Position numbers and translations under genes: made by a program. 64,000 bases of DNA, taken from assembly GCA_028699085.1 (NCBI GenBank), contig JAQVVF010000001.1:28333-92332 (forward strand), read 5' to 3'. The stretch is from Patescibacteria group bacterium. GTDB taxonomy: Bacteria > Patescibacteriota > JABMPQ01 > JAQVVF01. This document shows positions 4,186-61,741 of this stretch, piece by piece. The notes beneath the pieces are model-generated. The model searched no databases. It was not told the DNA's origin and saw nothing but the letters and a program-made list of their open reading frames with translations. Position 1 is the first letter of the stretch. Every line of letters begins with the position of its first letter.

Positions 4186-4320
4186 AATTACCAAGAAACA
4201 AGAAACAAGCAATAGTCAATAACCAAATTAAAATAATCAAACTCGTCGAATCGTTTGTCGGTTTGGTTATTGATAAATTGAAATTTGTTTGTATCTTGTT
4301 TCTTGTATCTTGGTTATTTT
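4186..4320 (+). repeat. Copy 1 of a roughly 130-nt structured intergenic repeat (outer arms ACAAGAAACAAG / CTTGTTTCTTG; inner AATAACCAAA / TTTGGTTATT; apex CAAACTCGTCGAATCGTTTG)
   Basis: Aligns with copies at 40660-40797 and 49984-50113. All three lie between co-directional plus-strand genes. Confidence 0.75.
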
Positions 4321-4331
4321 AAGAATCAAAA

Positions 4332-6332: not shown

Positions 6333-6372
6333 AAATTTATCATTTATAATTTGTAATTTTTAATTAGATATT

Positions 6373-6443
6373 GGGTCCGTAGCTCAATGGTAGAGCTGTA
6401 GCCTTTTAAGCTATAGATAAGAGTTCGATTCTCTTCGGACCCA
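6373..6443 (+). tRNA. tRNA-Lys (anticodon UUU)
   Basis: Cloverleaf folded by hand: acceptor GGGTCCG/CGGACCC, D-arm GCTC-AATGGTA-GAGC, anticodon stem GTAGC/GCTAT with loop CTTTTAA (TTT at 6405-6407), T-arm AAGAG-TTCGATT-CTCTT, discriminator A. No CCA is encoded. Confidence 0.8.
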
Positions 6444-6597
6444 AAAATATAATTTCTGGTTGCCAGAGTTCCGGAACGTCAGAACGACCGAAATGTCAAA
6501 TTTATTTAGGTTAATAATCTGCATATGAAGGCAGTTTTTTGTTGTCAAAATTTAGCTATTCCGAAATTCCGAAGCTCCAATTTCCAAAGTTCTAAAA

Positions 6598-42276: not shown

Positions 42277-42303
42277 CAATCGCTACTAAAGTGGCGATTT
42301 TTG
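42277..42303 (+). terminator. Rho-independent terminator AATCGCTAC-TAAA-GTGGCGATT plus T5
   Basis: Read directly after greA. Confidence 0.7.
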
Positions 42304-42416
42304 TTGAACTATATTGGCTTATTTAAAGAAAAATTAAGTTAAAGTATTGACAATAATAATAAAATATGCAATACTAATATGCTAGCCGTGGGATAAAAAA
42401 GAGAGGGGAGAAAACA

Positions 42417-42593
42417 ATGCAGAACAATGCAGATCTGAGCTGGGTGAAAGAGATAAAAAACACACCTGAGGAAAAAGAGGTAAATGAACTCCTGAGGAAC
42501 GGATGGAAACTCATAGCAATCACTCCTACTACACTTTTTTGTCCGGGAATACAAGTGTGTGAAACTTACAACATTTATATTCTTGGACGTTAA
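42417..42593 (+). CDS. Small protein (58 aa), possibly DUF4177-like, with its own promoter, a strong SD (GAGGGGAG) and a terminator
   Basis: Hand-translated MQNNADLSWVKEIKNTPEEKEVNELLRNGWKLIAITPTTLFCPGIQVCETYNIYILGR. ELLRNGWKLIAITP and YILGR loosely match the DUF4177 pattern (LNE.G.EGWELV...FKR). GC-richer. Confidence 0.35.
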   Translation: MQNNADLSWVKEIKNTPEEKEVNELLRNGWKLIAITPTTLFCPGIQVCETYNIYILGR

Positions 42594-42620
42594 ATGAACC
42601 CTTTATTGTTTTTTTGCTGA

Positions 42621-42646
42621 AGAGCCAGATAACTGGTTCTTTTTTT
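42621..42646 (+). terminator. Rho-independent terminator AGAGCCAG-ATAA-CTGGTTCT plus T6
   Basis: Read directly after the small gene. Confidence 0.65.
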
Positions 42647-42725
42647 ATGGCTAAAATTTCAAAATTTTATAGCCAAAAGCATCAAAACTTGATAAAATAA
42701 TTATATTAGAAAATCTAAATAATTT

Positions 42726-42810: not shown

Positions 42811-44889
42811 ATGCAAAGTGAACTTCGCCAAAATAGAATTAAAAAATTAGAAGAAATTAAAAATTTAGGAATTAATCCTTATCCTGCCAAGGCAGAAAGG
42901 ACGAATACTTGCCAAGAAGTCATTGATAGTTTTGACAAGCTTAAAGATCAAAAAAATATTATTGTTGGTCGTATTTTTTTGTTTCGTCCATTTGGCAAAG
43001 CAACATTTGCTCAACTTGGTGATGAATCAGCTAGATTGCAAATTTATTTTAAAGAAGAAACTTTAGGCAAAGAGCAATATAATTTAGTTAAAAAATTAGA
43101 TATTGGTGACTTCATCCAAGTTAGCGGTACATTATTTTTAACTAAAACCAATGAAAAAACTTTGCAGGTTAGTGAAATAAAATTATTAACCAAATCAATT
43201 TTGCCTCTTCCAGAAAAATTTCATGGCTTAAAAAATGAAGAGGAACGTTATCGCAAAAGATATTTGGATTTGATTTCTAACAGAGAAACTTTTGAATTAT
43301 TTAAAAAAAGAACTCAATTTGTTAATTCGATCAGAAACTTTATGCAGGACTCTGGCTTCATGGAAGTTGAGACTCCAGTTTTAGAGCACATTCCAGGTGG
43401 AGCAGATGCAACTCCATTTGTCACTCATCACAATAGCTTAGACATCGATTTGTATTTGAGAATTTCACTTGAGCTTCATTTAAAAAGGTTAATTGTTGGC
43501 GGTTACGAAAAGATTTTTGAAATTGGCAAAGTTTTTCGTAATGAAGGAATTTCAACTCAACATTTGCAAGAATTCACATTATTGGAATATTATTGGGCTT
43601 ATGCAAATTGGGAGGATTTAATTGGTTTTATAGAAAATTTTTATACTAAAATAATTAATGATACTTTTGGAACATTAAAAATTAAATATAAAGACCAAGT
43701 TTTAGATTTTACAGCTCCATGGAAACAATATGATTATACAGAGCTAATCAAAGAAAAAACCGGTATTGATTTGAACAAAGCCAATACTTTTGAAAAATTA
43801 ATAGAAGAAATAAGAGCTAAAAAAATTGATGTTGAAAATGTAATTGGTTATGGCAGGTTAGTTGATAACCTTTACAAGAAAACAGTCAGACCAAGTTTAA
43901 TTCAGCCATGCTTTTTAATTAATCAGCCCGTTGCAATCTCTCCATTAGCTAAAAAGAATGAAGAAAATCAAAATACAACTCAACGCCTGCAAGTTTTAAT
44001 TGCAGGTTCAGAATTAGGCAATGGTTTTTCTGAGCTTAATGATCCATTAGATCAGCGACAGCGATTCGAAGAGCAAGCAAAATTACGCAAAGAAGGCGAT
44101 GCAGAAGCGCAAATGATGGACGAAGACTTTGTAGAAAGTCTAGAATATGGCATGCCTCCAACAGCTGGATTTGGTGTTGGTATTGATCGATTATTTGCGA
44201 TTTTAACAAATTCAGAAAATATTAGAGATGTCATCTTTTTTCCATTGATGCGTCCAGAGAAAAAATCAGAAGAAATTAAATTTAAACCTTCAAAATCTTT
44301 AGAAATTGAAGAAGTAAAAGAATTAGATTCAGTCATTGATCGCAAAACAGCTTGGGAATTATTGAAACAAAATATTAAGACTGAAAATTTAATTAAACAT
44401 TGTTTAGCATCAGAAAGCATCATGAAGGCTTTAGCTAAAAAATTAAATAAACCAGAGCAAGCTTGGGGCATTACTGGTCTTGTTCATGATTTAGATTTTG
44501 ATTATACAAAAGACAAACCAGAAAAGCATACTTTAATGACAGCCGAGATTTTGGAAGAATATGATCTGCCAGAAGACATGATTGATGCAATTAAGTCACA
44601 TAATTACGAAAATACTGGCATTACCAAAAAAACAGATTTAGATTTCGCTTTGTCAGCTTCCGAACAGCTTAGCGGTTTAATTGTTTCTGCTGCCTTAGTT
44701 TTGCCAGACAAAAAATTAGCATTTTTAAAACCAGAATCAGTTGTTAAAAAAATGAAAGAAAAATCTTTTGCCAGAAATATTAACAGGCAAGATATTCAAG
44801 ATATCGAAAAATTAGGAATTAGTTTAGATGAATTTGTTGCTCTTGCTGTCAAAGCAATGCAAGAAATTAATAATGATTTAGGATTATAA
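42811..44889 (+). CDS. lysS: Lysyl-tRNA synthetase (class II) fused to a C-terminal HD-domain phosphohydrolase (about aa 520-692)
   Basis: N-terminal anticodon-binding domain and class II core (GINPYPAKAERT...FRNEGISTQHLQEFTLLE...GMPPTAGFGVGIDRL). The C-terminus carries the HD motifs H...HD...H...H...D (KHCLASE, GLVHDLDFDY, KHTLMTAE, KSHNYE, DLDFALS). Confidence 0.85.
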   Translation: MQSELRQNRIKKLEEIKNLGINPYPAKAERTNTCQEVIDSFDKLKDQKNIIVGRIFLFRPFGKATFAQLGDESARLQIYFKEETLGKEQYNLVKKLDIGDFIQVSGTLFLTKTNEKTLQVSEIKLLTKSILPLPEKFHGLKNEEERYRKRYLDLISNRETFELFKKRTQFVNSIRNFMQDSGFMEVETPVLEHIPGGADATPFVTHHNSLDIDLYLRISLELHLKRLIVGGYEKIFEIGKVFRNEGISTQHLQEFTLLEYYWAYANWEDLIGFIENFYTKIINDTFGTLKIKYKDQVLDFTAPWKQYDYTELIKEKTGIDLNKANTFEKLIEEIRAKKIDVENVIGYGRLVDNLYKKTVRPSLIQPCFLINQPVAISPLAKKNEENQNTTQRLQVLIAGSELGNGFSELNDPLDQRQRFEEQAKLRKEGDAEAQMMDEDFVESLEYGMPPTAGFGVGIDRLFAILTNSENIRDVIFFPLMRPEKKSEEIKFKPSKSLEIEEVKELDSVIDRKTAWELLKQNIKTENLIKHCLASESIMKALAKKLNKPEQAWGITGLVHDLDFDYTKDKPEKHTLMTAEILEEYDLPEDMIDAIKSHNYENTGITKKTDLDFALSASEQLSGLIVSAALVLPDKKLAFLKPESVVKKMKEKSFARNINRQDIQDIEKLGISLDEFVALAVKAMQEINNDLGL

Positions 44890-44919
44890 AATTTGAACCT
44901 TAAACAAGGAGAGAAAAAC

Positions 44920-45504
44920 ATGAACCAACTCCTTATCGCCACACATAATCCAGGTAAATTGAATGATTACAGAATCCTTCTAGCAAATTCAGGACTTGCT
45001 TTAGTTAGCTTGACTGATCTAGGAATTACGACTGAGCCAGAAGAAACTGGCAAGACTTTCCTAGAGAATGCAGAACTAAAGGCGAGATACTATTTCGAAC
45101 TATCAAAAATTCCTACTTTAGCTGAAGACGGTGGTCTTGAGATTGATTATTTGAATGGTGAACCAGGAGTAAGATCAAGAAGATGGCCAGGCTATGAAGC
45201 TACTGATGAAGAGCTAATTGCATTTGCGTTGCATAAAATGGCTGGGGTTCCTGATGAACAAAGAACATGCAACATGACAGCAGCCGCAGTATATTTCGAT
45301 GGAAAAAATATGAAAACAGGGCAGGGATTTACGAAGGGCATATTGACGCAACAGGCTGATTCAAAAATAGAAAAAGGATTTCCATACAGATCAATATTTT
45401 GGTCAACAAAATTTGGAAAATTAGCTGTTCATCTTTCAGATAAAGAAAAAAAACAGCTCCACCATCGCAAAGAAGCATTACAACAATTAGGCTTAATTAA
45501 ATGA
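44920..45504 (+). CDS. rdgB: Non-canonical purine NTP pyrophosphatase (RdgB/HAM1 family)
   Basis: LLIATHNPGKLNDY and the SRRW motif are present. GC-richer, with SD AAGGAGAG. Start at the ATG at 44920. Confidence 0.8.
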   Translation: MNQLLIATHNPGKLNDYRILLANSGLALVSLTDLGITTEPEETGKTFLENAELKARYYFELSKIPTLAEDGGLEIDYLNGEPGVRSRRWPGYEATDEELIAFALHKMAGVPDEQRTCNMTAAAVYFDGKNMKTGQGFTKGILTQQADSKIEKGFPYRSIFWSTKFGKLAVHLSDKEKKQLHHRKEALQQLGLIK

Positions 45505-45908
45505 AAAAAGTTCTCATCTTCGGCGCGTTTGATCTTTTGCACCCAGGCCATCTTGATTTTTTTAAACAAGCTAAAAAATTAGGGGATAGTCTAACTGTTA
45601 TAGTTGCACGTGATCAAACAGTTAGCGCCATCAAAAAACATCGCACATTGTTTAACGAGCAAGAAAGATTGGCTAATGTTAAAAATCAAAAGATAGTTAA
45701 TGAAGCAAGATTAGGCAATTTAGATGACCCGTACAAGATAGTGAAGCAGGAAAAGCCAGATATTATTGCTTTAGGCTATGATCAAAATTCATACACCGAA
45801 GAATTAGAAGACAAAATCAAAGAATTTGGTTTTAAAACAAAAGTTGTCAGACTGAAACCATTCAAGCCAGAAAAATATAAATCATCAAAGCTAAAGCTTA
45901 ATTTATGA
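45501..45908 (+). CDS. Cytidylyl/adenylyltransferase-family protein (RibL/TagD-like nucleotidyltransferase)
   Basis: IFGAFDLLHPGHLDF matches the (H/T)xGH nucleotidyltransferase signature. 135 aa. Overlaps rdgB by 4 nt. Confidence 0.6.
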   Translation: MKKVLIFGAFDLLHPGHLDFFKQAKKLGDSLTVIVARDQTVSAIKKHRTLFNEQERLANVKNQKIVNEARLGNLDDPYKIVKQEKPDIIALGYDQNSYTEELEDKIKEFGFKTKVVRLKPFKPEKYKSSKLKLNL

Positions 45909-49983: not shown

Positions 49984-50113
49984 ATAACCAAGAAACAAGA
50001 TACAAACAATTCTCAAATTACAAATTAAAATAATCAAACTCGTCGTCGTGTTTGGAAATTAGTAATTTGGATTTGAAATTTGTTTGTCAATTGTATCTTG
50101 TTTCTTGATTATT
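49984..50113 (+). repeat. Copy 3 of the roughly 130-nt structured intergenic repeat
   Basis: Aligns with 4186-4320 and 40660-40797. Confidence 0.75.
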
Positions 50114-50125
50114 AATTAGAATATT

Positions 50126-50917
50126 ATGATAGGTATTTTTGATTCAGGAGTTGGCGGATTGACAGTCGCTCGCCAGATAATTAAAAAACTGCCAGAGTAT
50201 CAGATAATTTATTTTGGCGATACTGCCAGAACTCCTTATGGCAATAAAAGTAAAGAAACAATTATTAAGTATGCTATTCAGGATACAAAATTTTTATTAA
50301 AAAATGGCGCTAAAATAATTGTTATTGCTTGTCATACCGCATCTGCCGTTGCTGCATCAGAATTAAGAAAAAAGTTCCCAGATGTTCCAATTTTTAATGT
50401 GGTCAAGGCTGGATTAATCAAAGCAGAACGAGTAACAAAAAATAAAAAAGTCGGTATTATTGGAACAAGAGCAACGATTTTCAGCCAAGTTCATGAAAAC
50501 TATTTAAAAAAAATAGATAAAGATATCAAAGTCTACACTGAAGCTTGTCCTCTTATTGTTCCCTTAGTAGAAGAAGACTGGATCAATCGTCCAGAAACAA
50601 AAAAGATTGTAAAATTTTATTTAAAACCATTTAGAAAGGAAAAAATAGATACTTTGGTTTTAGCCTGCACACATTATCCACTTGCAAAAGAAGCGATCAA
50701 AAAGGCGATTAAGCGGAAAATAAATATCATTGATCCAGGAGAAGAAGTGGCAAAAGAAGTTGATCTTTTTTTAAAAAATCATCCAATCATTGAAAAAAGA
50801 TTAGCAAAAAGCAAAAAACACAAATTCTTTGTTAGCGATATTCCTTTTAAATTTCAAGAATTTTCTGAAAAAATATTAGATCAAAAAATAAAAGTCAAAC
50901 AAATAAGTCTTGATTAA
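50126..50917 (+). CDS. murI: Glutamate racemase
   Basis: IGIFDSGVGGLTV and VIACHTAS motifs are present. Confidence 0.85.
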   Translation: MIGIFDSGVGGLTVARQIIKKLPEYQIIYFGDTARTPYGNKSKETIIKYAIQDTKFLLKNGAKIIVIACHTASAVAASELRKKFPDVPIFNVVKAGLIKAERVTKNKKVGIIGTRATIFSQVHENYLKKIDKDIKVYTEACPLIVPLVEEDWINRPETKKIVKFYLKPFRKEKIDTLVLACTHYPLAKEAIKKAIKRKINIIDPGEEVAKEVDLFLKNHPIIEKRLAKSKKHKFFVSDIPFKFQEFSEKILDQKIKVKQISLD

Positions 50918-52020
50918 TGGAGATATTCTTTACTAAATTTAATTTTATTCTAGCCTTTGCTTTGGCTTTTTTGATTACTGTATTATTTACATATTTAGTT
51001 AGAAAATTAGCTCTTCAATATAATATAGTCGATCGTCCAAACAGGAAAAGAAAAATCCATAAGAGCAATATTCCACTTATGGGAGGTTTAGCCGTTTTTA
51101 TCGGCTTTTTTATTACCTTAAGTTATTTTGTTTTAATAGACCGTGATTTCTTCGGCGGTTATATGCTTCCAAAATATATTCTAGGCCTAGCATTAGGCGG
51201 ATTAATCTTAATTATTGGTGGAATAATTGATGACAAATATAATCTAAGTCCAAAACAGCAATTTATTTTTCCGATAATTTCTTGTCTTGTTGTCATTATT
51301 TCTGGCATTGGCATTACTTTTATCAGTAATCCAATTGGTAACACAATAAATTTAGACGAAATCAGAATTAAGCTTTTTACAATTAATAATATTCCTTATT
51401 TTTTTACAGTTTTTGCTGATATTTTCACCATGATTTGGTTATTAGGCATGATTTATACTACAAAATTTTTAGATGGCATGGATGGACTTGTTTCCGGAAT
51501 ATCTGTAATTGCTTCAGTGATATTATTCTTTTTAAGTTTAAGTACGAAGGTAATGCAACCAGAAACTGCATTGCTTTGCATAATTCTAGCTGGAGCATCT
51601 TTAGGATTCTTAATCTTTAATTTTCATCCTGCCAAGATCTTTTTAGGAGAGGGAGGCAGTACATTCATTGGATTTATGTTAGGATCTCTAGCCATAATTT
51701 CTGGCGGAAAAATTGCTACAGCATTATTAATAATGGGCATTCCAATTCTTGACGTAATCTGGGTAATTTTAAGAAGAATTTTTAAACACAAATCTCCATT
51801 TCAAGCTGATCGTCAACATCTGCATTTTCGTCTTTACGATCTAGGATTCTCACAAAGGAGTGCTGTCATCTTTTTATGGTCAATTTCTGCATTATTTGGG
51901 CTTTTTGCGTTGTTTGTCCAAGGAAAAGAAAAGATACTAGCTTTTATCATTTTAATCGGCTTGATGACAATTATGGCAATATTACTATTAATTTTTTACA
52001 AGAAAAAACAGACTAGATAG
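50917..52020 (+). CDS. MraY/WecA-family polyprenyl-phosphate sugar-1-phosphate transferase (GT4)
   Basis: 10-11 TM helices. DRPNRKRKIHKSNIPLMGG is closer to WecA/TagO than to the MraY TPTMGG motif. Confidence 0.7.
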   Translation: MEIFFTKFNFILAFALAFLITVLFTYLVRKLALQYNIVDRPNRKRKIHKSNIPLMGGLAVFIGFFITLSYFVLIDRDFFGGYMLPKYILGLALGGLILIIGGIIDDKYNLSPKQQFIFPIISCLVVIISGIGITFISNPIGNTINLDEIRIKLFTINNIPYFFTVFADIFTMIWLLGMIYTTKFLDGMDGLVSGISVIASVILFFLSLSTKVMQPETALLCIILAGASLGFLIFNFHPAKIFLGEGGSTFIGFMLGSLAIISGGKIATALLIMGIPILDVIWVILRRIFKHKSPFQADRQHLHFRLYDLGFSQRSAVIFLWSISALFGLFALFVQGKEKILAFIILIGLMTIMAILLLIFYKKKQTR

Positions 52021-52024
52021 TCTG

Positions 52025-52426
52025 TTAATGAGCAATCGATTGAGGAGCAATCTGTTGTGGAAAATGTAGTCCAAATCTAGAAATCTTATAAACCGTATTG
52101 TCATCAATTATTTCAAGAGGAATTTCTTGTTCTTGACAATGCAAACTGATTATTTTCATATAACCGTCACGACCATCAATAGTTGGAGCAATAAGTGCAA
52201 ATCCAAGCGTGTAACCAGCTTTCAAAACATGCATGCAAGAGCTTAAATCATTGCACACATAAACATCGAATCCTGCATCTTCCAGCGCTTTCAAAAGTGC
52301 TCTACATCTCTTTACTTCACATTCCATCAAGAGTACCATCATTTTTTTTCCAGAAGTACAGCCTGCAGTTTTACTGCCAGGATCCTGGCCGTTTGCAGGC
52401 TTCTCGGAAGCTTTTTTCGCTGGCAT
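52025..52426 (-). CDS. Degenerate receiver-like (pseudo-REC) protein, GC-richer, SD GGAGGG
   Basis: REC-like alpha/beta layout, but the phospho-acceptor Asp position reads LIAPTIDGRDG (D replaced by A). Confidence 0.4.
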   Translation of the reverse strand: MPAKKASEKPANGQDPGSKTAGCTSGKKMMVLLMECEVKRCRALLKALEDAGFDVYVCNDLSSCMHVLKAGYTLGFALIAPTIDGRDGYMKIISLHCQEQEIPLEIIDDNTVYKISRFGLHFPQQIAPQSIAH

Positions 52427-52546
52427 GTTGATTTCCCTCCAACCATCAGCGACCCAACCTTAGTTTAACAGATTATTTACAACCACACAAAAATTTTTAA
52501 AGTGGATATCTAATAAAAAAAGACAGGCAACTGTCTTATATAGTAC

Positions 52547-52888
52547 TCAAGCTAGAATTAAAAGAACAATTTCGATCAAAATAGAAATATCTGTTTTGCC
52601 CCAAAAATAATCATAATATCCCTCGAGATCTTCTCTTGCAGTGCTCATTACAATACAAGGAATTTTATGCTCATCGCAATAGGCCTTTACAACATCGCCA
52701 TTTGCAATCGGCATATAAAAGTCAGTGACTGCCAAATGAATATTTCTTTCTGTTTGAAGTACTCTTAGTGCATCATGCCCATTTCGCGCATGCACTACTT
52801 CAAACCCCTTCATTTCCAACTCTATTTCAATCAAATCACGCAAGTCAATATTATCGTCAACAACTAATATCTTTTTGCTTCCCCGCAT
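52547..52888 (-). CDS. Stand-alone response-regulator receiver (CheY-like REC) domain protein, with a G8 tract abutting the start codon
   Basis: Motifs ILVVDDN, LAVTDFYMP...NG and IVMSTA are present. A C8 run at 52889-52896 (G8 on the coding strand) lies immediately 5' of the ATG. Confidence 0.6.
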   Translation of the reverse strand: MRGSKKILVVDDNIDLRDLIEIELEMKGFEVVHARNGHDALRVLQTERNIHLAVTDFYMPIANGDVVKAYCDEHKIPCIVMSTAREDLEGYYDYFWGKTDISILIEIVLLILA

Positions 52889-52994
52889 CCCCCCCCTGTT
52901 GTCGCTGACAGCAATTTATATATACAACATTATAATAAAAAAGTCAATACAAAAAGTCTTGACCAAAGTGGAAAACAAGCATATACTTAAATAT

Positions 52995-53309
52995 ATGACA
53001 AAATTTGCAATTATAAAAACAGGCGGAAAACAATACAAAGTCTCTGAAGGAGATATTATTTTGATTGACAAAATCATCGAACCTAAAAAGACTTTAGAAT
53101 TTAAAGAAGTACTTTTATTTGCTGATGAAAAAGATACTAAGATTGGCGCTCCAAAAATATCTGGAACAAAGGTTGAAGCTGATGTTCTAAGAGCAGAAGT
53201 AAAAGGGGACAAGGTCTTAACTGTAAAATATAAATCTAAAAAAAGATTCAAAAAAACAGTTGGTTTCAGACCAAGGTATACAGAAGTAAAAATAACAAAA
53301 ATTTCTTAA
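52995..53309 (+). CDS. rplU: 50S ribosomal protein L21
   Basis: MTKFAIIKTGGKQYKVSEGD is the typical L21 N-terminus. ATG at 52995. Confidence 0.85.
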   Translation: MTKFAIIKTGGKQYKVSEGDIILIDKIIEPKKTLEFKEVLLFADEKDTKIGAPKISGTKVEADVLRAEVKGDKVLTVKYKSKKRFKKTVGFRPRYTEVKITKIS

Positions 53310-53320
53310 AGAATATTTAA

Positions 53321-53350
53321 AAGACTGCATTAAAAAGCAGTCTTTTTTTT
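53321..53350 (+). terminator. Rho-independent terminator AAGACTGC-ATTAAAAA-GCAGTCTT plus T9
   Basis: Read directly after rplU. Confidence 0.8.
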
Positions 53351-53395
53351 TGTATAAAAAAAGACATATATTATGTCTAAAAAAGTACGTATTAA

Positions 53396-53932
53396 TTAAG
53401 ATGTCGAAGATATTCTCCTGTACAAAATCAAGTCATTTAACGAAATGTTAAGATGTGTAGCTTTATCATGAGAATTAAAAACTTCATAAAGGTTATTTCC
53501 GATTATGTTTGCAATGTGCCCTTCAATGTAAGCACCTTTTTTAAATGCTCTGATAAAATCTCCAACCTTAAGCTCAACGAATACATTTTTGCCTTCAGCA
53601 AATATCATCTCTGAACTAGGTATTTCAAGTATTTCTGCCGAACCATTTTTCAACATTTTTTCCAAAAAGAGTAATGAATATTTTCGAGTTTGTTGAATGC
53701 CATCGATGCAATAACAAACTTCGACAAAACTGTGGAAAAATGGTTGTGCTAATCCGTCAATAACTCGTTTTACAATTTCAACATCTTGAGCAACAACTGT
53801 TGCAGAAACAATAAGAATTTTCTTCTTAAGCCATAAAAAGCCACATCTATGAGTTAATATCAATCTTAAAGTAGTGCCCAACGGAAACTTTTCAAAAGCA
53901 GCACCAGTTTCCCATTGCAACTGCTCGCTCAT
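53396..53932 (-). CDS. Hypothetical protein (about 178 aa), GC-richer, SD GGAGG-N4-ATG
   Basis: ORF starting at MSEQLQWETG. No family was recognised. Located downstream of ybaB-recR. Confidence 0.35.
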   Translation of the reverse strand: MSEQLQWETGAAFEKFPLGTTLRLILTHRCGFLWLKKKILIVSATVVAQDVEIVKRVIDGLAQPFFHSFVEVCYCIDGIQQTRKYSLLFLEKMLKNGSAEILEIPSSEMIFAEGKNVFVELKVGDFIRAFKKGAYIEGHIANIIGNNLYEVFNSHDKATHLNISLNDLILYRRISSTS

Positions 53933-54065
53933 TTTTCCTCCATAACCTGCCGACTTCGGCAGGCAAAATAGAATGTGCAAGTATCTAATTTAGCAAACAT
54001 AGTATTTAATGTCAAATAAAAAAAAGCTATTCAGCTCTTTCAAAATTACATATTTTTGTTATATG

Positions 54066-54665
54066 CTAATATTCTTTACGACCTTTCATTGCATTGCTTA
54101 AAGTTACTTCATCTGCATATTCTAAATCTCCTCCTGAAGGCAGACCTCTAGCTATTCTAGTCGTTTTTATGCCAAGTGGTTTAACTAATTTTGCAATATA
54201 CATTGCCGTAGCTTCACCTTCCAAATTCGGGTTAGTTGCCAATATGATTTCCTTTATATCTACATTTTGCTTTAAGCGATTTAACAATTCATTAATCTTA
54301 AGATCTTCTGGACCTACATTATTTATAGGAGAAATCGATCCATGCAACACATGATAAAGTCCATTAAATTCGCCAGAAGAATTAATTGCCACAATATCCA
54401 TTGGTTCTTCGACAACGCAAATCAACGATTTATCTCGTCTTAAATCAGCGCATATTGGGCAAGGATTTTTTTCAGTCAAATTAAAACAACAAGAGCAAAA
54501 AGTTACTGTCTTCTTTAATTCAGATAGAGCCCTTGCAAAAGATTCGACATCAGTAGCCTTAGATTTTAATAAATAAAAAGACAACCTAGAAGCAGTTTTT
54601 GGACCGATTCCAGGAAGTTTTGAAAACTCAATTATCAAATTTTGAAGCGGTATTGGTAGTATGTT
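54066..54665 (-). CDS. recR: Recombination protein RecR
   Basis: HhH motif (LPGIGPKTASRL), C4 zinc finger (CSCC...CPIC) and Toprim domain. Confidence 0.85.
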   Translation of the reverse strand, partial: NILPIPLQNLIIEFSKLPGIGPKTASRLSFYLLKSKATDVESFARALSELKKTVTFCSCCFNLTEKNPCPICADLRRDKSLICVVEEPMDIVAINSSGEFNGLYHVLHGSISPINNVGPEDLKINELLNRLKQNVDIKEIILATNPNLEGEATAMYIAKLVKPLGIKTTRIARGLPSGGDLEYADEVTLSNAMKGRKEY

Positions 54666-54669
54666 CATA

Positions 54670-54777
54670 AATAACCAATTATCAATAACCAAAAAATAAT
54701 CAATATATAATAACCAATAATCAAATTTTAGTTATTAGATTTTTGGTTATTCGTTGATTATTAGTTATTGATTATTT
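54670..54777. repeat. Imperfect palindrome of AATAACCAA / TTGGTTATT and AATCAATAA / TTATTGATT words between ybaB and recR
   Basis: Read directly. Same word family as 17416-17536. Confidence 0.55.
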
Positions 54778-55069
54778 ACATCTGTGGCATCTGAATTTCG
54801 CCAGCTTGCATTTTTCTAACCATCATCATCTGTAATTCTTTATTTGCTTTAGAAAAAGCATCTTTAATTGCATTTTGTAATTTGTCTTGATTGGAAGCTT
54901 CTAATAATGATTCATCAATAAAAACTTCTTTGATTTTTTGGCTGCCATCCATAGAAATTTTTACTTGGCCGTTCAAACTCTCTCCAGTGATTAATTCAGA
55001 TTCTAATTGTTTTTTCATTTCACTAGCTTGCTTTCTTAAGCTAGCTAAATTTTTTAATTGTTCAAACAT
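54776..55069 (-). CDS. ybaB: Nucleoid-associated protein YbaB/EbfC
   Basis: 97 aa. N-terminal MFEQLKNLASLRKQASEMKKQLE is typical of the family. Sits upstream of recR. Confidence 0.8.
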   Translation of the reverse strand: MFEQLKNLASLRKQASEMKKQLESELITGESLNGQVKISMDGSQKIKEVFIDESLLEASNQDKLQNAIKDAFSKANKELQMMMVRKMQAGEIQMPQM

Positions 55070-55216
55070 AATTTTAAATTAATATTTAATTTTGAATTTA
55101 GAATTTTAAATCAATTTTGAAATCAGAATTTAGAATTTCGAAACAGTTAGCCGCATTTAAAAATTAAATTATTCAAAATTCATTCTAAATTTAAAATTCG
55201 AAATTCAAAATTATAG

Positions 55217-56569
55217 CTAGATTTCACGTCTTTTTTCAAGATTTCTAAAGCTTGCAACATTCTGTTCAAAGAATAGATCAACAACACCTGTTGGTCCATT
55301 TCTATGCTTCTTTATATGAATCTCAGCAATATGTTTACGATCTGTATCTTTTTTATAAACTTCTTCACGATAAATAAACATTACTACATCGGCATCCTGT
55401 TCAATACTACCACTTTCTCTTAAATCTGACAATTGTGGAATTTGCGGTGTTCTATTCTCTACGGCACGAGATAATTGAGATAAAGCCAAAACAGGTACAT
55501 TGAGTTCGCGAGCTATACCTTTTAGTGCTCTAGATATTTCGGAAACTTCTTGGACTCTGCTTTCTGTATTTCGGCCTTCCATTAATTGCAAATAATCGAC
55601 AACCAAAAAACCTAATCCATGTTCAGCATGCAATCTTCTTGCTTTCGTTCTTATTTCCATGATATTTGAAGAAGGGGAGTCATCAATAAATAATGGCGCT
55701 TCCGAAAGCACACCCATCGCATGTCCGATTCTTGGAAAATCATCATCTTCTTCGCGATCGGAAAGTTTTCCTGTTCTCATTCGCCATAAATCAACATTTG
55801 CTTCAGAGCAAAGTATTCTATCAACAAGCTGCTCTTTCGACATTTCTAAACTAAATATGCCAACAGGAATTTTTTGTTTAGCAATATTCTTTGCAAAATC
55901 TAATGCTAGAGAAGTTTTACCCATAGATGGTCTAGCAGCTAGAATAATCAAATCAGATCGCTGAAAACCAGCCAAGACATTATCTAGATCTGGAAAGCCA
56001 GTTGGAATTCCACGCAATTTACTGCCATCTCGATGCAATTCATCAATCCTTTCAAAGGCGTCAGTCAAAACATCTTTAATAACAATAAAATTTTGCTTTA
56101 AATATTTTTGCGAAATACCAAACAGTTTTTGTTCAGCTTCATCCAGAAGTTTTTCAATATCTTTTCCTTCTTGATATCCTAATCTCGAAATATCACCAGC
56201 AGCAGTAATCAATTTTCTTAATGTCGATTTTCTTTGAACTATTTTAGCATAATGAATAATATTTCCAGCAGTTGGCACAATATTTGCTAAAGAAACTAAA
56301 TAGCTTCTTCCGCCAATCAAATCAAGATGTCCTTTGTCAGTTAGAGAATTAGCCAAACTTACGACATCAATAGGTTCACGTTTTTCATACAATTCCAACA
56401 TTGAAGAAAAAATAATGCTATTTTTTTCTTCATAAAAATCTTCCGGACGTAAAAAATCAGAAACTTTTATAACTGCATCTTTATCAATCAAAAGTGAGCC
56501 TAAAACAGATTTTTCAGCTTCTTTATTTCTTGGCGGTAATTTTTCAACAACGTCGTTTTGGTTTTCCAT
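55217..56569 (-). CDS. dnaB: Replicative DNA helicase DnaB
   Basis: N-terminal primase-interaction domain (EAEKSVLGSLL) and RecA-like core with Walker A (ARPSMGKTSLAL). Confidence 0.9.
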   Translation of the reverse strand: MENQNDVVEKLPPRNKEAEKSVLGSLLIDKDAVIKVSDFLRPEDFYEEKNSIIFSSMLELYEKREPIDVVSLANSLTDKGHLDLIGGRSYLVSLANIVPTAGNIIHYAKIVQRKSTLRKLITAAGDISRLGYQEGKDIEKLLDEAEQKLFGISQKYLKQNFIVIKDVLTDAFERIDELHRDGSKLRGIPTGFPDLDNVLAGFQRSDLIILAARPSMGKTSLALDFAKNIAKQKIPVGIFSLEMSKEQLVDRILCSEANVDLWRMRTGKLSDREEDDDFPRIGHAMGVLSEAPLFIDDSPSSNIMEIRTKARRLHAEHGLGFLVVDYLQLMEGRNTESRVQEVSEISRALKGIARELNVPVLALSQLSRAVENRTPQIPQLSDLRESGSIEQDADVVMFIYREEVYKKDTDRKHIAEIHIKKHRNGPTGVVDLFFEQNVASFRNLEKRREI

Positions 56570-56666
56570 ACAAAATTTAGTGATATATCAATATATCATT
56601 TTTACATAAAAAAACAATCCTCTACATTGAGGATAATTTTTTAAATAAATATTCAATATTAAATAT

Positions 56667-58007
56667 TTAATATTTTAAAATTTTTGATCCTTTTTCAGTA
56701 TCTTCTACTTCATATCCTAACTTTATAATTTCTTTTCTCAGTTCGTCAGCTTTTTGCCAATCTTTATTCTTTCTTGCATTTTCACGTTCTTTAACAAGTT
56801 TCAAAACTTCTTCAGGAATTATGATCTCATCAACTTTATTTAGATTTAAACCTAATACTTTATCAAAATCAATCAGAGTAGCTTTTTTGTCAGAATCATC
56901 TAAACCAGATTTCAATAATTCCCAAACAATCGTTAAAGCTTTTGGCATATCCAAATCATTATTGATCGCTTCCAAAAATTTTTCTTTATATTCTTTAGAA
57001 ATTTCGCCAGAATCTTTAAAATCTTTAATTCTTTCGCAAAGTTTATTCAAAGAATTTTTAGCAGACTTTAAACCAGACCAATTAAAATTTAATTTTGTTC
57101 TATAATGTGCTTGCAAACATAAATATCTAAAATCAAGAGGGGAAAAGAATTCTTTTTCAAGATCTTTCAACGTATAAAAGTTATGTAGACTCTTAGACAT
57201 TTTTGCATTATCAACAAGCAAATGTTCACCATGTATAAAATAATTTGCAAAAGGTTTATCTGTTTTAGCTTCTGCTTGAGCAATCTCATTTTCATGATGA
57301 GGAAAAATTAGATCAATTGCTCCGGCATGAATATCTAAAGTATCACCAAGTATATCTTGAGCCATTGTTGAACATTCAATATGCCATCCTGGCCTGCCTT
57401 TTCCTAATTTTGTTTCCCAATAAATTTCGCCGTCATCTTGATCATAACTTTTCCACAAAACAAAGTCAGACAAATTTTCTTTTTCGTAATTATCATGCTT
57501 GACTCTTGCACCAACCTTTAAGCCAGATTTATCAAGCTTTGCTAATTTTCCATAATCTTTGAATTTCTCAATTTTAAAATAGACTGATCCGTCAATTGCT
57601 TTATAAGCAAAGCCTTTATTAATTAATTCTTGAATAAAATCAGCCATTTTCTCAATATATTTTGTGGCATTTGTAATAACATCAGGCTTAATAATGTTTA
57701 AACTTTTTAAATCTTCAAAAAATTTATTTTCAAAATCTTTTGTTAATTTTGCAAATTCTTTTTTATTACCATTTGAAGCTTTAATAGTTTTATCATCAAC
57801 ATCAGTAATATTCATAACGTGTTTGACTTCAAAGCCATCATATAGTAGGACACGTTTTAATAGATCTTCAAAAATGTAAGTTCGAAAATTTCCAATATGG
57901 GCATAATCATAAACTGTTGGCCCGCATGTATATAATCCAACTTCTTTGTCTTTTAGCGGTTTAAATTCCTCAATTTTTCTCGATAATGTATTGTATATTT
58001 TTAGCAT
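56667..58007 (-). CDS. cysS: Cysteinyl-tRNA synthetase
   Basis: Class I HIGH motif (HIGNFRTY), KMSKS motif, and Cys-binding CGPTVYD. Confidence 0.9.
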   Translation of the reverse strand: MLKIYNTLSRKIEEFKPLKDKEVGLYTCGPTVYDYAHIGNFRTYIFEDLLKRVLLYDGFEVKHVMNITDVDDKTIKASNGNKKEFAKLTKDFENKFFEDLKSLNIIKPDVITNATKYIEKMADFIQELINKGFAYKAIDGSVYFKIEKFKDYGKLAKLDKSGLKVGARVKHDNYEKENLSDFVLWKSYDQDDGEIYWETKLGKGRPGWHIECSTMAQDILGDTLDIHAGAIDLIFPHHENEIAQAEAKTDKPFANYFIHGEHLLVDNAKMSKSLHNFYTLKDLEKEFFSPLDFRYLCLQAHYRTKLNFNWSGLKSAKNSLNKLCERIKDFKDSGEISKEYKEKFLEAINNDLDMPKALTIVWELLKSGLDDSDKKATLIDFDKVLGLNLNKVDEIIIPEEVLKLVKERENARKNKDWQKADELRKEIIKLGYEVEDTEKGSKILKY

Positions 58008-58143
58008 AGTAATTTAAAAATAACATTAAATTCAATAATTTTCAAATATAATAGGGAAGGTAAGCAGTCCATCTTGTGTTTTTCAGACAAAAGATTATAA
58101 TATTACAAACAAGTTCTTTCAAACCAAGAAGGAGGAAAAGAAA

Positions 58144-58494
58144 ATGGGACTGATAGTTGGAATCATTGTTGTCATCATACTTATTTTTGGAGTCTTTTTT
58201 GTTCTTGGCGCTGCAATTGGCGGAATCTTAGGAGTTCTTGGCGTTGTCGCTTTGATTTGGATTACCGCTGGATTTATTATTTCCAATACTAAAGAAGGCA
58301 GTATTAGCGCAATAGTTGGTATTATTGCTTTAGTTTTGACTATCCTTTTCTTTTCAACTGGAGCTTGTAAGCATGTATATGTTGCATGCAATAATGTTCC
58401 TTATGGCGTTTTAGATTCCATCAGTCCATTCCCAGGAAAATCAATGGTCTGTAACGGAAAAGTAGTTTGGAGATCAAACGGAAAATGTCCATGA
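58144..58494 (+). CDS. Small membrane protein (116 aa) with a Cys-rich C-terminus, SD GGAGGA
   Basis: Three hydrophobic helices followed by C...C...C...C. A terminator follows at 58524-58554. Confidence 0.4.
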   Translation: MGLIVGIIVVIILIFGVFFVLGAAIGGILGVLGVVALIWITAGFIISNTKEGSISAIVGIIALVLTILFFSTGACKHVYVACNNVPYGVLDSISPFPGKSMVCNGKVVWRSNGKCP

Positions 58495-58523
58495 TAATGG
58501 AATCTTAAAATTTTGCGCAATCA

Positions 58524-58554
58524 AAAACCGGCATTCAATCTACCGGTTTTTTTT
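58524..58554 (+). terminator. Rho-independent terminator AACCGG-N11-CCGGTT plus T8
   Basis: Read directly. Confidence 0.65.
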
Positions 58555-58581
58555 AATATAAATATTTATTTGATATTTTAG

Positions 58582-59988
58582 TTATCTCATGTCTCCACTA
58601 TTTCTAACATCAGCTCTCTTCATCGGCCACCAATTTTTTCCTGATTTATCATAAAAATCAGATAGATTCCAGATATAAACAGAATTATCAGTTAGGCTAG
58701 AAATAACTTCTAGAACCTTATTATTATCAATATCAGATAAAGTTGGATAAGTTAAAAAATTTCCGCCAGAAGATTCCGTCATTAATGGCCAGCTATCTTT
58801 GATAGCATCGCCATTATTTTTCCAAGCATAAATTCTATCATCAGCAGTACCTAAGATTTCGCAACTTCCATCATTATCAACATCAGCTAGATTTACAAAT
58901 TTTATGCCCTTATCAGATTTCTTTGGCCAGCCTTTTATTTCAGCTCCGAAATTACCAAGAACATGAACACCAGATTTATTTGCAAAAGCAATATTTGCAA
59001 TTCCATCGCTATCAATATCTCCAAGTGCAAGATCAGAAACCCCATCTTCATTATTTATTGTTAAAATCTGCTGACCATCTTTTGTATAGACTAAAATACT
59101 ATTTTCTTTCGTGCTTACAATAATATTAGAGTCAGCTTTATTTATAACATTACCTAATACAATTTCCATATCTACAGATTGCGAATTAATTTCCTGCGGA
59201 AATCCAGATAGCATCTGTCCATCTTCTTTTGCCACAAAAAGATTTGTTTTCCCAGATGATAAAGCTGTATAAATAATTTCTGATTTTGTATCATTATTCA
59301 AATCTCCAGAAGCTACTGAAGAATTAATTTTTTCGCCTGTTTCTTTCGGCCAACCAGAAATTATTAAACCATTATCTGAAAGTGCATAAATTATCCTGTC
59401 TCCAAAAGCAATTACTTCCATTTTATTATCTGATGTAATATTAGAAATTACAGGAGTATTCTCATTGCCTAAATTGCTCAGAGCTCTTGGCCAGCCTTCA
59501 ATAATTTCAGCATCACCGGAAAAAGCGTATATCGAATTACTTGTTCCAATTATAACATCTAACTTGCCGTCTGCATTCAAGTCAGCAATCGATGGAGTTG
59601 ATTTTCCTAAATATTCATCAATCTTAATAGGCCAATTTGGAACTTCTGATCCGTCATCATTTAGAGCATAAATCAGATGATCGCTTGTGCCAAAAATAAT
59701 TTCTGGTTTTTTGTCCGCATCAATATCGCCAACGGTTGTTCTTGAAGGTATTCCGCTAATACTTCTTGGCCAGCCTGCTTTATAAACCAAAACAGGAAAC
59801 AAATCCTTGATATTTGGACCTTGATTTTTCTTCTTTACAATTGATTGAGGAATGATTGGTTCGTTTTTGTAGGCACCTTTATAAACAGTGTATCCCATTG
59901 CTGCCATCATTGCAGCACCAGCAAATAAAACGCCAATCAAAGTCCCAACACGAACCTTAGTTTTTGTTTGTGTCAGTGTCTCTGGCAT
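58582..59988 (-). CDS. Membrane-anchored FG-GAP/VCBS-repeat beta-propeller protein
   Basis: N-terminal TM helix. Repeated D.D.DG-type FG-GAP motifs (ADLNADGKLDVIIGT, GDLNNDTKSEIIYTA, GDIDSDGIANIAFAN, ADVDNDGSCEILGTA). Confidence 0.55.
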   Translation of the reverse strand: MPETLTQTKTKVRVGTLIGVLFAGAAMMAAMGYTVYKGAYKNEPIIPQSIVKKKNQGPNIKDLFPVLVYKAGWPRSISGIPSRTTVGDIDADKKPEIIFGTSDHLIYALNDDGSEVPNWPIKIDEYLGKSTPSIADLNADGKLDVIIGTSNSIYAFSGDAEIIEGWPRALSNLGNENTPVISNITSDNKMEVIAFGDRIIYALSDNGLIISGWPKETGEKINSSVASGDLNNDTKSEIIYTALSSGKTNLFVAKEDGQMLSGFPQEINSQSVDMEIVLGNVINKADSNIIVSTKENSILVYTKDGQQILTINNEDGVSDLALGDIDSDGIANIAFANKSGVHVLGNFGAEIKGWPKKSDKGIKFVNLADVDNDGSCEILGTADDRIYAWKNNGDAIKDSWPLMTESSGGNFLTYPTLSDIDNNKVLEVISSLTDNSVYIWNLSDFYDKSGKNWWPMKRADVRNSGDMR

Positions 59989-60020
59989 AATTTTTTATTT
60001 AGTTATTTTTTATTTAGTTA

Positions 60021-61136
60021 TTATTCAACGTCCTTGCCAATCCATTCTTCCAATACATCTTTGATATCAATTGCTTTAACTTCAGGAAGTTTTGTTCCAG
60101 CTTTATCTTCTTGTGCTGATAATTGTAACCGTTCAATCTTTTCGTTAATTGCTAATTCTTTCTGTGACAATTTTTTAATCTCAATTTCATCAGTTGATTT
60201 TTCTCTTTTTTGCTGAACATCTGAAAGTGTAGCTTCTAATTGTTTTATTTTTCCAGGAGCATCAATAATCTGTAATCTAACCATAGCTGAAGATTCATCA
60301 ATTAGATCAATAGCTTTATCAGGCAAATATCTATTTTTAATATACTTATCAGATAATTTCGCGGCAGCTTCAATTGCATCAGAAGAAATAATAACTTTAT
60401 GATGATCTTCGTAAACTTTCTTCAAACCATCTAATATTCTTATTGTCATCAAAACATCAGGCGGGTCAACCATTACTGGTTGAAAACGTCTTTCTAAGCT
60501 TGCTTCTGGTTTTATATATTGATTATATTCATCTAACGTTGTTGCACCAACAGCCTGTAAATCGCCGCGAGCTAATGCTGGCTTAATAATATCCGAAGGA
60601 TCCAAAGCTCCTTCAGCGCCTTTTGATTGGACAATTAAATGGACTTCATCAATAAACAATATAATAGTTCTATTGGAAGCTTTAAGCTCATCCATTACTT
60701 TTCTTAACCTTTGTTCAAATTCACCTCTGTATTTTGTTCCTGCAATTAAACTGCTGACATTCAATGCTAGTACTCTTTTATTTTGCAAACTTTCTGGCAC
60801 TTTTTTTTCTACAATTCTTTGCGCTAAACCTTCCACAATTGCCGTTTTTCCAACACCAGCTTTTCCTAATAAAATTGGATTATTTTTAGTTCTTCTAGAT
60901 AATATCTGGGTAATTCTCTCTATTTCCGATTCGCGGTCAATGACAGGATCTAATTTTTTGTCTCTTGCATCAGCTGTAACATCTATAGAATAAGAATCTA
61001 GTATTGGTGTTTTACCTCCGCCAGAGATTTTAGAGCCAGATCCTGGAGACCTTTTAAATCGATCGCGATTTAGCCAAATTAAATAAGCAATCGCTACAAC
61101 AACTAAAAAAATAATTGCCCATATGCTTGTCGTCAT
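60021..61136 (-). CDS. Membrane-anchored AAA+ ATPase corresponding to the ClpB/ClpC first nucleotide-binding domain (NBD1) plus the start of the middle domain. There is no NBD2
   Basis: N-terminal TM helix. Strong collinear similarity to ClpB NBD1 (NPILLGKAGVGKTAIVEGLAQRIV, ILFIDEVH, GATTLDEYNQYIKPEASLERRFQPV, LPDKAIDLIDE). The ORF ends after the coiled-coil start. Confidence 0.6.
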   Translation of the reverse strand: MTTSIWAIIFLVVVAIAYLIWLNRDRFKRSPGSGSKISGGGKTPILDSYSIDVTADARDKKLDPVIDRESEIERITQILSRRTKNNPILLGKAGVGKTAIVEGLAQRIVEKKVPESLQNKRVLALNVSSLIAGTKYRGEFEQRLRKVMDELKASNRTIILFIDEVHLIVQSKGAEGALDPSDIIKPALARGDLQAVGATTLDEYNQYIKPEASLERRFQPVMVDPPDVLMTIRILDGLKKVYEDHHKVIISSDAIEAAAKLSDKYIKNRYLPDKAIDLIDESSAMVRLQIIDAPGKIKQLEATLSDVQQKREKSTDEIEIKKLSQKELAINEKIERLQLSAQEDKAGTKLPEVKAIDIKDVLEEWIGKDVE

Positions 61137-61269
61137 ATAAATTTTATTTTAATTTTAAAAATTGATAGCCAACTAACTATAAAAACATTATATAACAAAT
61201 TATTAAAAAATAAAAATATTTGTTGCATTTTAAAAATATGCTATTATAACAATAAGTTAATCTTTACCC

Positions 61270-61737
61270 ATGATAAAAAACATACAAGAAAAAACTCCAC
61301 AAGGAAAAGAGCCTCAAGATGTAGAATCAGAAATCGAAAGGTTAAAAAGAGATTTAGCAGAAAAGGAAAAAGCTCTCAAGGAACAAAAAGAAATAAAACC
61401 AGAAGCAGAAACGCTCAAGCCAGAAAAACAGGAGCAAGAAGAAGTTACAAAAGCTGAAGAAAAAAAGGAAACCTCAGAAGCGCCTAAAAAAGAAAAAGCA
61501 CCAGAACAATTATCTCCAAGAATGAATGATCCTGAAATTTTAAAAGAACTAACCGAACTTAAAGAATCAGGACAACCGAGGCAAGTCATTGAGCTTGCTT
61601 ATCTTGCTTTTGAAAAGGGTACTTCCTATGCGCTTGATATTGCTAACAAAACAAAAGATCCTTCTATTATTGCGGGATTTCGTGGTATACTAACTAGTAA
61701 GTTGGGCGAAAGATTAAAAGAAAAAAACAAACTTTAA
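61270..61737 (+). CDS. Hypothetical K/E-rich protein (155 aa), immediately upstream of the fused membrane-ATPase gene
   Basis: ORF with a charged low-complexity N-terminal half. The 4-nt gap to the next gene suggests an operon. Confidence 0.35.
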   Translation: MIKNIQEKTPQGKEPQDVESEIERLKRDLAEKEKALKEQKEIKPEAETLKPEKQEQEEVTKAEEKKETSEAPKKEKAPEQLSPRMNDPEILKELTELKESGQPRQVIELAYLAFEKGTSYALDIANKTKDPSIIAGFRGILTSKLGERLKEKNKL

Positions 61738-61741
61738 AAAA

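Follow-up and report, generated by a model that had tools for sequence, protein, structure and literature searches.

Lysyl-tRNA synthetase (LysRS) is the classic source of diadenosine tetraphosphate (Ap4A) (PMC10148737). The Ap4A hydrolase YqeK, widespread in Firmicutes and Thermotoga (PMC10148737), has been described as the only dinuclear HD phosphatase, and a dinuclear metal site in HD proteins is diagnosed by the six-residue motif H / HD / H / H / D (PMC8177086). In the Streptococcus pyogenes enzyme a catalytic lysine, Lys62, lies within an HDxxK sequence (PMC11857287). An HD domain also forms part of an aminoacyl-tRNA synthetase (aaRS), the GlyRS beta-subunit, where the HD doublet has been lost (Ser393-Lys394) and the domain acts in binding of the tRNA acceptor arm or in allostery (PMC8464048). 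Here we describe a gene, lysS::HD, that joins a LysRS to a complete HD-domain protein at its C-terminus. It lies in a stretch of 64,000 nucleotides from a Patescibacteria group bacterium (contig JAQVVF010000001.1, positions 28,333 to 92,332), referred to below as the window, in whose numbering all coordinates are given. Our leading reading, to which we assign a probability of about 0.35 from the sequence evidence, is that the HD module would be an Ap4A-type hydrolase coupled to LysRS.

The 692-residue product comprises a class II LysRS (aa 1-482), a disordered linker (aa 483-506) and an HD/HDIG protein (aa 507-692), encoded as follows.

42811..44889, + strand: complete lysS::HD fusion gene, a single uninterrupted open reading frame (ORF) with an ATG start, 692 aa and a stop codon
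42961..43188, + strand: LysRS OB-fold anticodon-binding domain, aa 51-126 (PF01336, 52.5 bits)
43234..44250, + strand: LysRS class II catalytic core, aa 142-480 (PF00152, 277.5 bits)
44257..44328, + strand: flexible linker, aa 483-506, modelled with low confidence by AlphaFold2 (AF2) and unconserved
44329..44886, + strand: predicted HD/HDIG dinuclear metal-hydrolase module, aa 507-692, equal to the whole of a stand-alone protein of about 184 aa

The synthetase part scores 578.4 bits against the bacterial LysRS model TIGR00499 (lysS_bact; cut-off 427.6), aa 4-484 aligning with model positions 4-496 of 496, and the fusion protein scores 630.3 against NF001756 (468). Its core carries motif 2 (R243-N244-E245-G246) and motif 3 (G453-F454-G455...R460). 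The greA-lysS-...-serS synteny is common to the fusion gene and its unfused relatives, and no second LysRS was found within the window; aa 1-482 are the organism's housekeeping class II LysRS, at the orthologous position. For the C-terminal part, aa 501-692 scanned alone give 34.4 bits against PF01966 (HD; cut-off 22), TIGR00277 (HDIG) gives 40.8-43.6 bits against a cut-off of 27.6 in scans of both the isolated C-terminus and the full-length protein, and the best homologues of this part alone reach E = 1e-56, far beyond chance. A sequence-only reading of this DNA had proposed a LysRS with a C-terminal HD domain, to be checked against HD models; scores above cut-off for TIGR00499, PF01966 and TIGR00277 bear out the fusion and its HD assignment. 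The extension had been put at about 170 aa and is longer, about 207 aa, made up of the linker of about 24 aa and a complete HD protein of 184-186 aa.

The residues expected to bind metal were located in an alignment of 154 fused and stand-alone family sequences, to which all counts over 154 refer.

44398..44400, + strand: codon of H530, putative metal ligand 1 (H in 154/154)
44485..44496, + strand: codons of H559-D560-L561-D562, the HD doublet and an invariant Asp (HDxD; H, D and D each in 154/154)
44527..44529, + strand: codon of H573, putative metal ligand (H in 153/154)
44599..44601, + strand: codon of H597, putative metal ligand (H in 154/154)
44662..44664, + strand: codon of E618, putative last acidic metal ligand (E in 90, D in 64 of 154)

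G556, G622, F653 and R659 are likewise present in 154/154, and W552 in 153/154. The motif series read earlier from the sequence holds for KHCLASE (H530), VHDLD (H559-D560), KHTLM (H573) and KSHNYE (H597); its final element, DLDFA, does not, as D611 is an Asp in just 72 of the 154 and E618 takes the place of last ligand. This glutamate lies in 'SASEQ' and aligns with the final Asp of the YqeK sequence 'ADYI' (D135) in the profile alignment. The module, which has the all-alpha HD fold, thus keeps all six ligands of a dinuclear centre: H530, H559-D560, H573, H597 and E618.

Residues 507-692 align end to end with stand-alone proteins of about 183-190 aa, at 46-57% identity over 89% of the query among 120 listed members, and the invariant columns (H, W, G, HDxD, H, H, D/E, G, P, F and R) are common to the module and the stand-alone family. 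With the family profile, an exhaustive search gave 2,767 clusters (50% identity) at E <= 1e-10, of which 472 reach E <= 1e-30. At least 596 genomes carry a relative according to a motif scan with one genome per species, whose patterns do not capture sequences of the HDIDW type, the type that most fusions have. The bacterial hosts include Planctomycetota, Thermodesulfobacteriota, Elusimicrobia, Bacillota, Bacteroidota, Spirochaetales, Actinomycetota, Patescibacteria and Pseudothermotoga, the archaeal ones Thermoplasmata, Bathyarchaeia, Aenigmatarchaeota and Nitrososphaeria. Family members bear generic names, such as 'HDIG domain-containing metalloprotein' or, at JGI, 'predicted hydrolase (HD superfamily)', and literature searches, COG2316 included, found no papers on this HDIG family of about 184 aa. 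Judged by its sequence, the module is a full-length representative of this uncharacterised HDIG family, which is widespread.

Conservation of these residues in both free and fused forms argues strongly that the HD domain would be an active phosphohydrolase. Another explanation makes it a non-catalytic tRNA-binding or allosteric module in the style of the GlyRS beta-subunit. The GlyRS domain has lost its doublet; here the six ligands are conserved across all the fused and stand-alone sequences compared. The GlyRS domain (PDB 7EIV, 7YSE, 8IE2) is internal, whereas this module is C-terminal and flexibly tethered, and hundreds of genomes encode it as a free protein of 184 aa. With a pI of 5.5 here the domain is acidic (the means are 6.7 among fused domains and 6.0 among stand-alone ones), and close relatives charge tRNA(Lys) without it; we regard the non-catalytic explanation as very improbable. 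Similarly slight is the chance that the domain is a diiron oxygenase of the MIOX, PhnZ or TmpB type and no hydrolase at all: YqeK, HD-GYP and PgpH are matched far better than enzymes of the oxygenase type, no phosphonate or inositol genes lie nearby, and the family is common in Desulforudis, Syntrophomonadaceae and Thermodesulfobacteriota, which are strict anaerobes.

A homologue search with the fusion protein listed about 45 full-length fusion clusters of 685-740 aa, 46-91% identical and assigned, where named, to Patescibacteria, Pacebacteria, Paceibacterota or Minisyncoccia. The 90%-identity cluster of the window protein has four members, the exact protein and three near-identical ones of 691-692 aa, whose assemblies come from NCBI, JGI and Logan. 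When 40 of the fusions are aligned, the LysRS residues R243, N244, E245, G246, G453, F454, G455 and R460 are invariant, as are H530, W552, G556, H559, D560, D562 and H597 of the HD part, with H573 kept in at least 90%; the survey of related genomes that the sequence-only reading had called for finds the fusion in more than 40 clusters with both active sites conserved. That reading had also allowed that the two parts might be separate genes, joined falsely through a frameshift in sequencing or assembly. Adjacent unfused lysS and HD genes do occur in some relatives, and the linker DNA contains an A6 run; against this, the frame is continuous, the same protein appears in assemblies from all three sources, and relatives at 89-91%, 70% and about 50% identity, from dozens of independent assemblies, share the fusion with differing linker sequences. 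Its recurrence in over 40 clusters of independently assembled sequence shows that no frameshift artefact produced the join, an explanation to which we give next to no weight. No internal start codon was found ahead of the HD part in the DNA of the fusion ORF. The NCBI entry with the exact protein, MDD3887215.1, is named simply 'lysine--tRNA ligase [Patescibacteria group bacterium]', probably because Pfam annotations miss the HD domain: the Pfam scan of the full-length protein did not report it, PF01966 matching on the isolated C-terminus only, and precomputed Pfam annotations lack it in roughly one fusion cluster out of two.

AF2 models the full-length protein as two well-folded parts on either side of aa 479-506, for which the predicted local distance difference test (pLDDT) falls below 50, and the predicted template modelling score (pTM) is 0.56. 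Across the fusions the linkers measure 15-40 aa, are unconserved and carry no net charge. Since the linker is of such low confidence and the pTM is 0.56, the HD domain appears tethered to the synthetase and not docked on it; the model indicates that a disordered linker ties the hydrolase to the synthetase dimer without docking.

The origin of the fusion can be read from the neighbouring genes, of which Ham1, CutA and SerRS lie near it in the window, the first directly downstream.

44893..45504, + strand: Ham1/RdgB-type non-canonical NTP pyrophosphatase gene (PF01725, 140 bits)

In one Patescibacteria locus (L031) the window's order is found unfused: LysRS of 492 aa, a spacer of 37 nt, HD of 183 aa and Ham1. 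Two further loci have LysRS followed by HD, with a 73-nt spacer (L067) and a 4-nt overlap (L078). A fourth (L093) reads greA | lysS | HAD | HD::Ham1 | ksgA | serS, its HD::Ham1 protein (P0372) having 395 aa and lying at 4001-5188, and a 918-aa protein (P0293) is a triple LysRS::HAD::HD fusion. The greA-lysS-...-serS backbone is common to these four loci and to the fused loci L090-L092. It is near certain that the fusion arose by loss of a stop codon between adjacent genes of the Patescibacteria string lysS-(HAD)-HD-Ham1, and the linker derives from the former lysS-HD intergenic space; architecture and origin are both held at this level of certainty. One of the loci, L078 (CAZUWK010000024.1; 40% G+C), is labelled 'uncultured Gammaproteobacteria bacterium' and has greA-lysS-HD-serS synteny; because this synteny is of Patescibacteria type the label is doubtful, and the bin may be mislabelled or chimeric.

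Neighbour-joining (NJ) trees were built for the two halves. Fused and unfused proteins interleave in the tree of LysRS halves, and fused HD domains fall into up to six groups in the tree of HD domains, which is a weak one; repeated fusion, loss or both are therefore likely, both trees being too crude to count events. In the long proteins that occur within the top 150 family representatives, the HD domain is joined to LysRS far more often than to any other partner (P0269, P0282, P0291, P0302, P0340 and P0149, together with six N-terminally truncated fragments). The other partners are Ham1, HAD, PAS-PAS-GGDEF, AMMECR1 and a PQQ-type beta-propeller. In a 656-aa protein found on 12 contigs (P0252; P0390 is listed likewise), PAS-PAS-GGDEF is followed at the end by a full-length family HD domain (242.7 bits against the profile of the family), in the place where EAL or HD-GYP usually sits; this architecture hints at c-di-GMP or pGpG dinucleotide chemistry for at least some family members. 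The AMMECR1-HD arrangement was seen in a 370-aa protein (P0271), the sole member of its 90%-identity cluster and found on one contig, and the PQQ-beta-propeller-HD arrangement in a protein of 555 aa (P0248). As the partners include Ham1, HAD and PAS-GGDEF, a nucleotide or dinucleotide substrate is indicated, and the acidity of the HD domain together with the uncharged linker argues against an appendage for binding nucleic acid. We infer that the HD module works on a small molecule of nucleotide type.

The substrates would most likely be dinucleoside polyphosphates (Ap4A, Ap3A, Ap4N), which LysRS would form when ATP or another nucleotide attacks lysyl-AMP. The tether would keep the sites of production and degradation only a few nanometres apart, and the HD module, together with Ham1 and HAD as house-cleaning enzymes from the neighbouring genes, would limit the build-up of Ap4A by recycling it to ADP. 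An Ap4A-type substrate leads because LysRS makes Ap4A, YqeK is the nearest relative, the partners handle nucleotides, and multinuclear HD enzymes tend to process bulkier substrates or ones with several hydrolysable bonds (PMC8177086). YqeK is the closest solved and characterised relative of the module, though a distant one. It shares an all-helical HD fold of about 185-195 aa (TIGR00488; PDB 2O08, 2OGI, 3CCG, 8JJA, 8WMY) and the same six-ligand dinuclear motif, H...HD...H...H...D(E), and it too is found fused to or beside a nucleotide-handling enzyme, NadD (model PRK07152).

Confidence in the Ap4A assignment stays near the value given at the outset because of the missing catalytic lysine, an equal similarity to phosphodiesterase HD domains, the linkage to RNase R, the overlap with YqeK-bearing phyla and the restricted linkage to lysS; the observations behind these points, set out here and in the following three paragraphs, weigh against it. 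The module had been likened to YqeK-type Ap4A hydrolases, and the likeness is upheld for the six-ligand motif and fails for membership of TIGR00488 and for Lys62. At E <= 0.01 the window domain has no match to TIGR00488, and the position equivalent to Lys62, residue 563, is F here and Y/V/W/F across the family; with Lys62 replaced by the HDxD arrangement and TIGR00488 unmatched, the module is not a YqeK member. Superposition on YqeK covers 124 of 207 residues at 17-20% identity, and the HD domains of HD-GYP, PgpH, GlyRS-beta and RNase Y are about as close. The spacing from the HD doublet to the third His is 14 residues in the module and 33 in YqeK (S. pyogenes numbering), and YqeK has nothing equivalent to the C-terminal third of the module, where PDKKL, KxKxFA and R659 are conserved. 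The adenine-pocket residues of YqeK (L172, F180, T183) lie in the C-terminal helices, and the superposition takes in only the core of about 124 residues. A PDB search with the C-terminus as a single sequence gave no match, YqeK being reached by the family profile only. Among 39 family members the matches are to HDIG (39/39), PRK12703, the HD part of archaeal Trm56-HD (38/39), RNase Y (36/39), PRK07152 NadD-YqeK (34/39), TIGR00295 (31/39) and the DVU_1551 NTP-transferase-HD model (30/39). TIGR00488 is matched weakly by 22 of the 39 (best E 4.1e-8), at a level comparable to the RNase Y and Trm56-HD matches, which fall far below the cut-offs of those models. The di- and trinuclear phosphodiesterases PgpH and HD-GYP (PDB 4S1B, 4MCW) were not detected by the family profile in the PDB search, and the module differs from them in having no GYP motif, no HDIGK lysine and no seven-transmembrane (7TM) or REC partner. 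A nearby PF01467 gene (45501-45908) was considered as nadD and rejected: it is a generic adenylyl/cytidylyltransferase with no NadD match, so that the linkage to nadD seen with YqeK is not repeated here.

The stand-alone family is common in Bacillota and present in a Pseudothermotoga genome; as YqeK and this family both occur in phyla of the Bacillota and Thermotoga type, the one may not simply substitute for the other. In its boldest form, the Ap4A assignment would make the family a third class of bacterial and archaeal Ap4A/Np4N (possibly Np4-cap) hydrolase beside ApaH and YqeK, and its pairing with LysRS a synthase-hydrolase module setting Ap4A at the source. We consider this doubtful but worth stating: if it were true, the linkage of HD to RNase R in Clostridia would reflect Np4-decapping ahead of RNA decay, and an essential translation enzyme would carry an alarmone 'governor' with a logic like that of RelA/SpoT or GGDEF-EAL. 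Motif scans of the window found no Nudix, HIT, ApaH or HDxxK proteins, which says little, the window being only a fraction of the genome.

A different picture arises from the immediate neighbours of 80 stand-alone HD genes (63 downstream, 68 upstream). RNase R lies directly downstream in 9 of 63, the commonest neighbour outside Patescibacteria, and this hints at RNA. The HD module could then be an RNA-directed phosphoesterase acting on 2',3'-cyclic or 3'-phosphate ends, or on the nanoRNA, pApA or pGpG left by exoribonucleases; on LysRS it might heal or clear RNA ends related to tRNA(Lys), in the manner of the HD domain of class II CCA-adding enzymes. In line with this, SmpB follows RNase R in Caloramator (H+-PPase - HD - RNase R - SmpB; L003 and L004), and translation genes recur beside the family: ArgRS and TyrRS in Dictyoglomus (ArgRS - MBL - HD - QueT - TyrRS), eIF-1A in three archaeal loci and SerRS in two loci. 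The same survey has LysRS upstream in 3 of 68. The weak matches to Trm56-HD and RNase Y noted above point the same way, a PAS-GGDEF-HD protein would suit a pGpG or dinucleotide phosphodiesterase, and dinuclear HD sites are typical of dinucleotide and nucleic-acid phosphodiesterases (PMC8177086). Against an RNA role stand the acidic domain and uncharged linker, and the small-nucleotide chemistry of the fusion partners Ham1 and HAD. The adjacency to RNase R appears confined to Bacillota/Clostridia and would then represent few independent events; downstream ORFs of about 705-745 aa sit in loci so labelled (L003, L004, L032, L047, L056, L071, L073, L075, L076, L080). Moreover, the HDxGK-type motifs of RNase Y, PgpH and CCA enzymes carry the HDIG lysine. 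This 'HD[IL]GK' lysine has no counterpart in the module, where the sequence is HDLDF and the family has D at +2 in 154/154 and Y/V/W/F at +3. Taken together, we hold an RNA substrate to be possible, with the odds against it.

The unfused relatives raise a further alternative. The close ones (L086-L089) have the same backbone without an HD gene, and the lysS-HD linkage is confined to the Patescibacteria superphylum with its conserved synteny; because of this absence and this restriction, the HD module is dispensable and the fusion could be incidental. Under such an explanation the module is a general nucleotide house-cleaning hydrolase, removing damaged or excess NTP, dNTP or NDP, joined to its neighbour neutrally in a streamlined genome and mechanistically unconnected with LysRS. 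All states of fusion are seen for the gene string (LysRS::HD, LysRS|HD, HD::Ham1, LysRS::HAD::HD), as adjacency-driven fusion expects, and the interleaving in the LysRS tree, the relatives that simply lack the HD gene and the unconserved, disordered linker fit equally. Three loci each have H+-PPase, CYTH or MoCF-type proteins upstream of the stand-alone gene, the first two adding a phosphate/polyphosphate theme. A neutral origin sits less easily with a fusion kept over deep divergence (to about 47% identity) with both active sites intact, with the prominence of LysRS among the partners, or with the several groups of fused HD domains, which suggest recurrence within the limits of a weak NJ tree. 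We therefore rate neutral fusion of a house-cleaning enzyme as a tenable but somewhat unlikely account, and retain the Ap4A-type hydrolase as the leading one. Small ORFs beside unfused lysS (161 aa in L088, 193 aa in L089) were examined as cryptic HD domains and are not HD. In L086 (678-3712), genes for NUDIX, thymidylate-synthase-like, thymidylate kinase and dUTPase proteins precede unfused lysS; it is a speculation that a Nudix protein near lysS could clear Ap4A in lineages without the HD module.

Upstream of the fusion gene, in a window of about 32% G+C, two candidate signals were noted.

42670..42698, + strand: promoter-like site upstream of lysS::HD (TAGCCA-17-TAAAAT with TG), a consensus match only
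42619-42642: terminator-like hairpin ahead of the promoter-like site of lysS::HD

Promoter-like sites in this region are no more numerous than in shuffled sequence. The gap between greA and lysS measures 570 bp and holds an ORF of 58 aa with an ATG start (42417..42593, + strand), which has a promoter-like site upstream (42347-42375, TTGACA-17-AATACT with TG) and the hairpin at 42619-42642 downstream; a second terminator-like hairpin lies just past greA (42278-42299). This element could be a small-protein gene or a small RNA. Neither Rfam nor ARAGORN detected an RNA element in the gap or close to the fusion gene. The only tRNA gene in the window, about 36 kb upstream, is that of tRNA-Lys(UUU) (6372-6444, + strand), the cognate substrate of LysRS. 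A weak HD-like tblastn match at 63728-63844 was discarded as a chance match in a 51-aa ORF. Cumulative GC skew rises to about 52 kb, falls to about 62 kb and rises again, and the AT skew also changes sign; the turn at about 50000-62000 probably reflects a block of minus-strand genes, a replication landmark being less likely.

Other LysRS proteins of the candidate phyla radiation (CPR)/Patescibacteria also carry C-terminal additions. Patescibacteria/Parcubacteria LysRS of 635 aa (P0170, P0218, P0224) end in a PF09391 DUF2000 domain (70.5 bits), a domain classed by structure with the peptidyl-tRNA hydrolase 2-like folds; searches of PDB sequences and of the literature gave nothing for this appendage. 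A PheRS-B2-like OB domain has been added C-terminally to a few Microgenomates LysRS (PMC5370408). Both additions occupy the same end of the synthetase but are not HD hydrolases. Literature searches found no paper describing a LysRS-HD fusion, PMC5370408 included, and nothing on Trm56 with an HD domain or on an HDIG/Ham1/aaRS fusion. Domains appended to synthetases are common; a catalytically intact metal phosphohydrolase on one is not. If the fusion is merely a neutral joining of neighbours, it offers a clean case of how gene strings fuse and split in the streamlined genomes of the CPR, and whatever the substrate, a large uncharacterised HD family gains testable partners in LysRS, Ham1, HAD, GGDEF and RNase R. 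If the HD module degrades Ap4A, its production and removal would for the first time be found on one polypeptide, with a direct handle on Ap4A as a signal versus a damage product to be cleared. The nearest parallels would then be the producer-degrader fusions GGDEF-EAL, GGDEF-HD-GYP and RelA/SpoT, which likewise hold the maker and the breaker of a nucleotide signal on one chain. In GGDEF-EAL and RelA/SpoT a dedicated cyclase or synthetase makes the signal; in the LysRS-HD fusion, which has no regulatory domain and whose degrading activity is a predicted one, Ap4A would arise as a side reaction of an essential synthetase.

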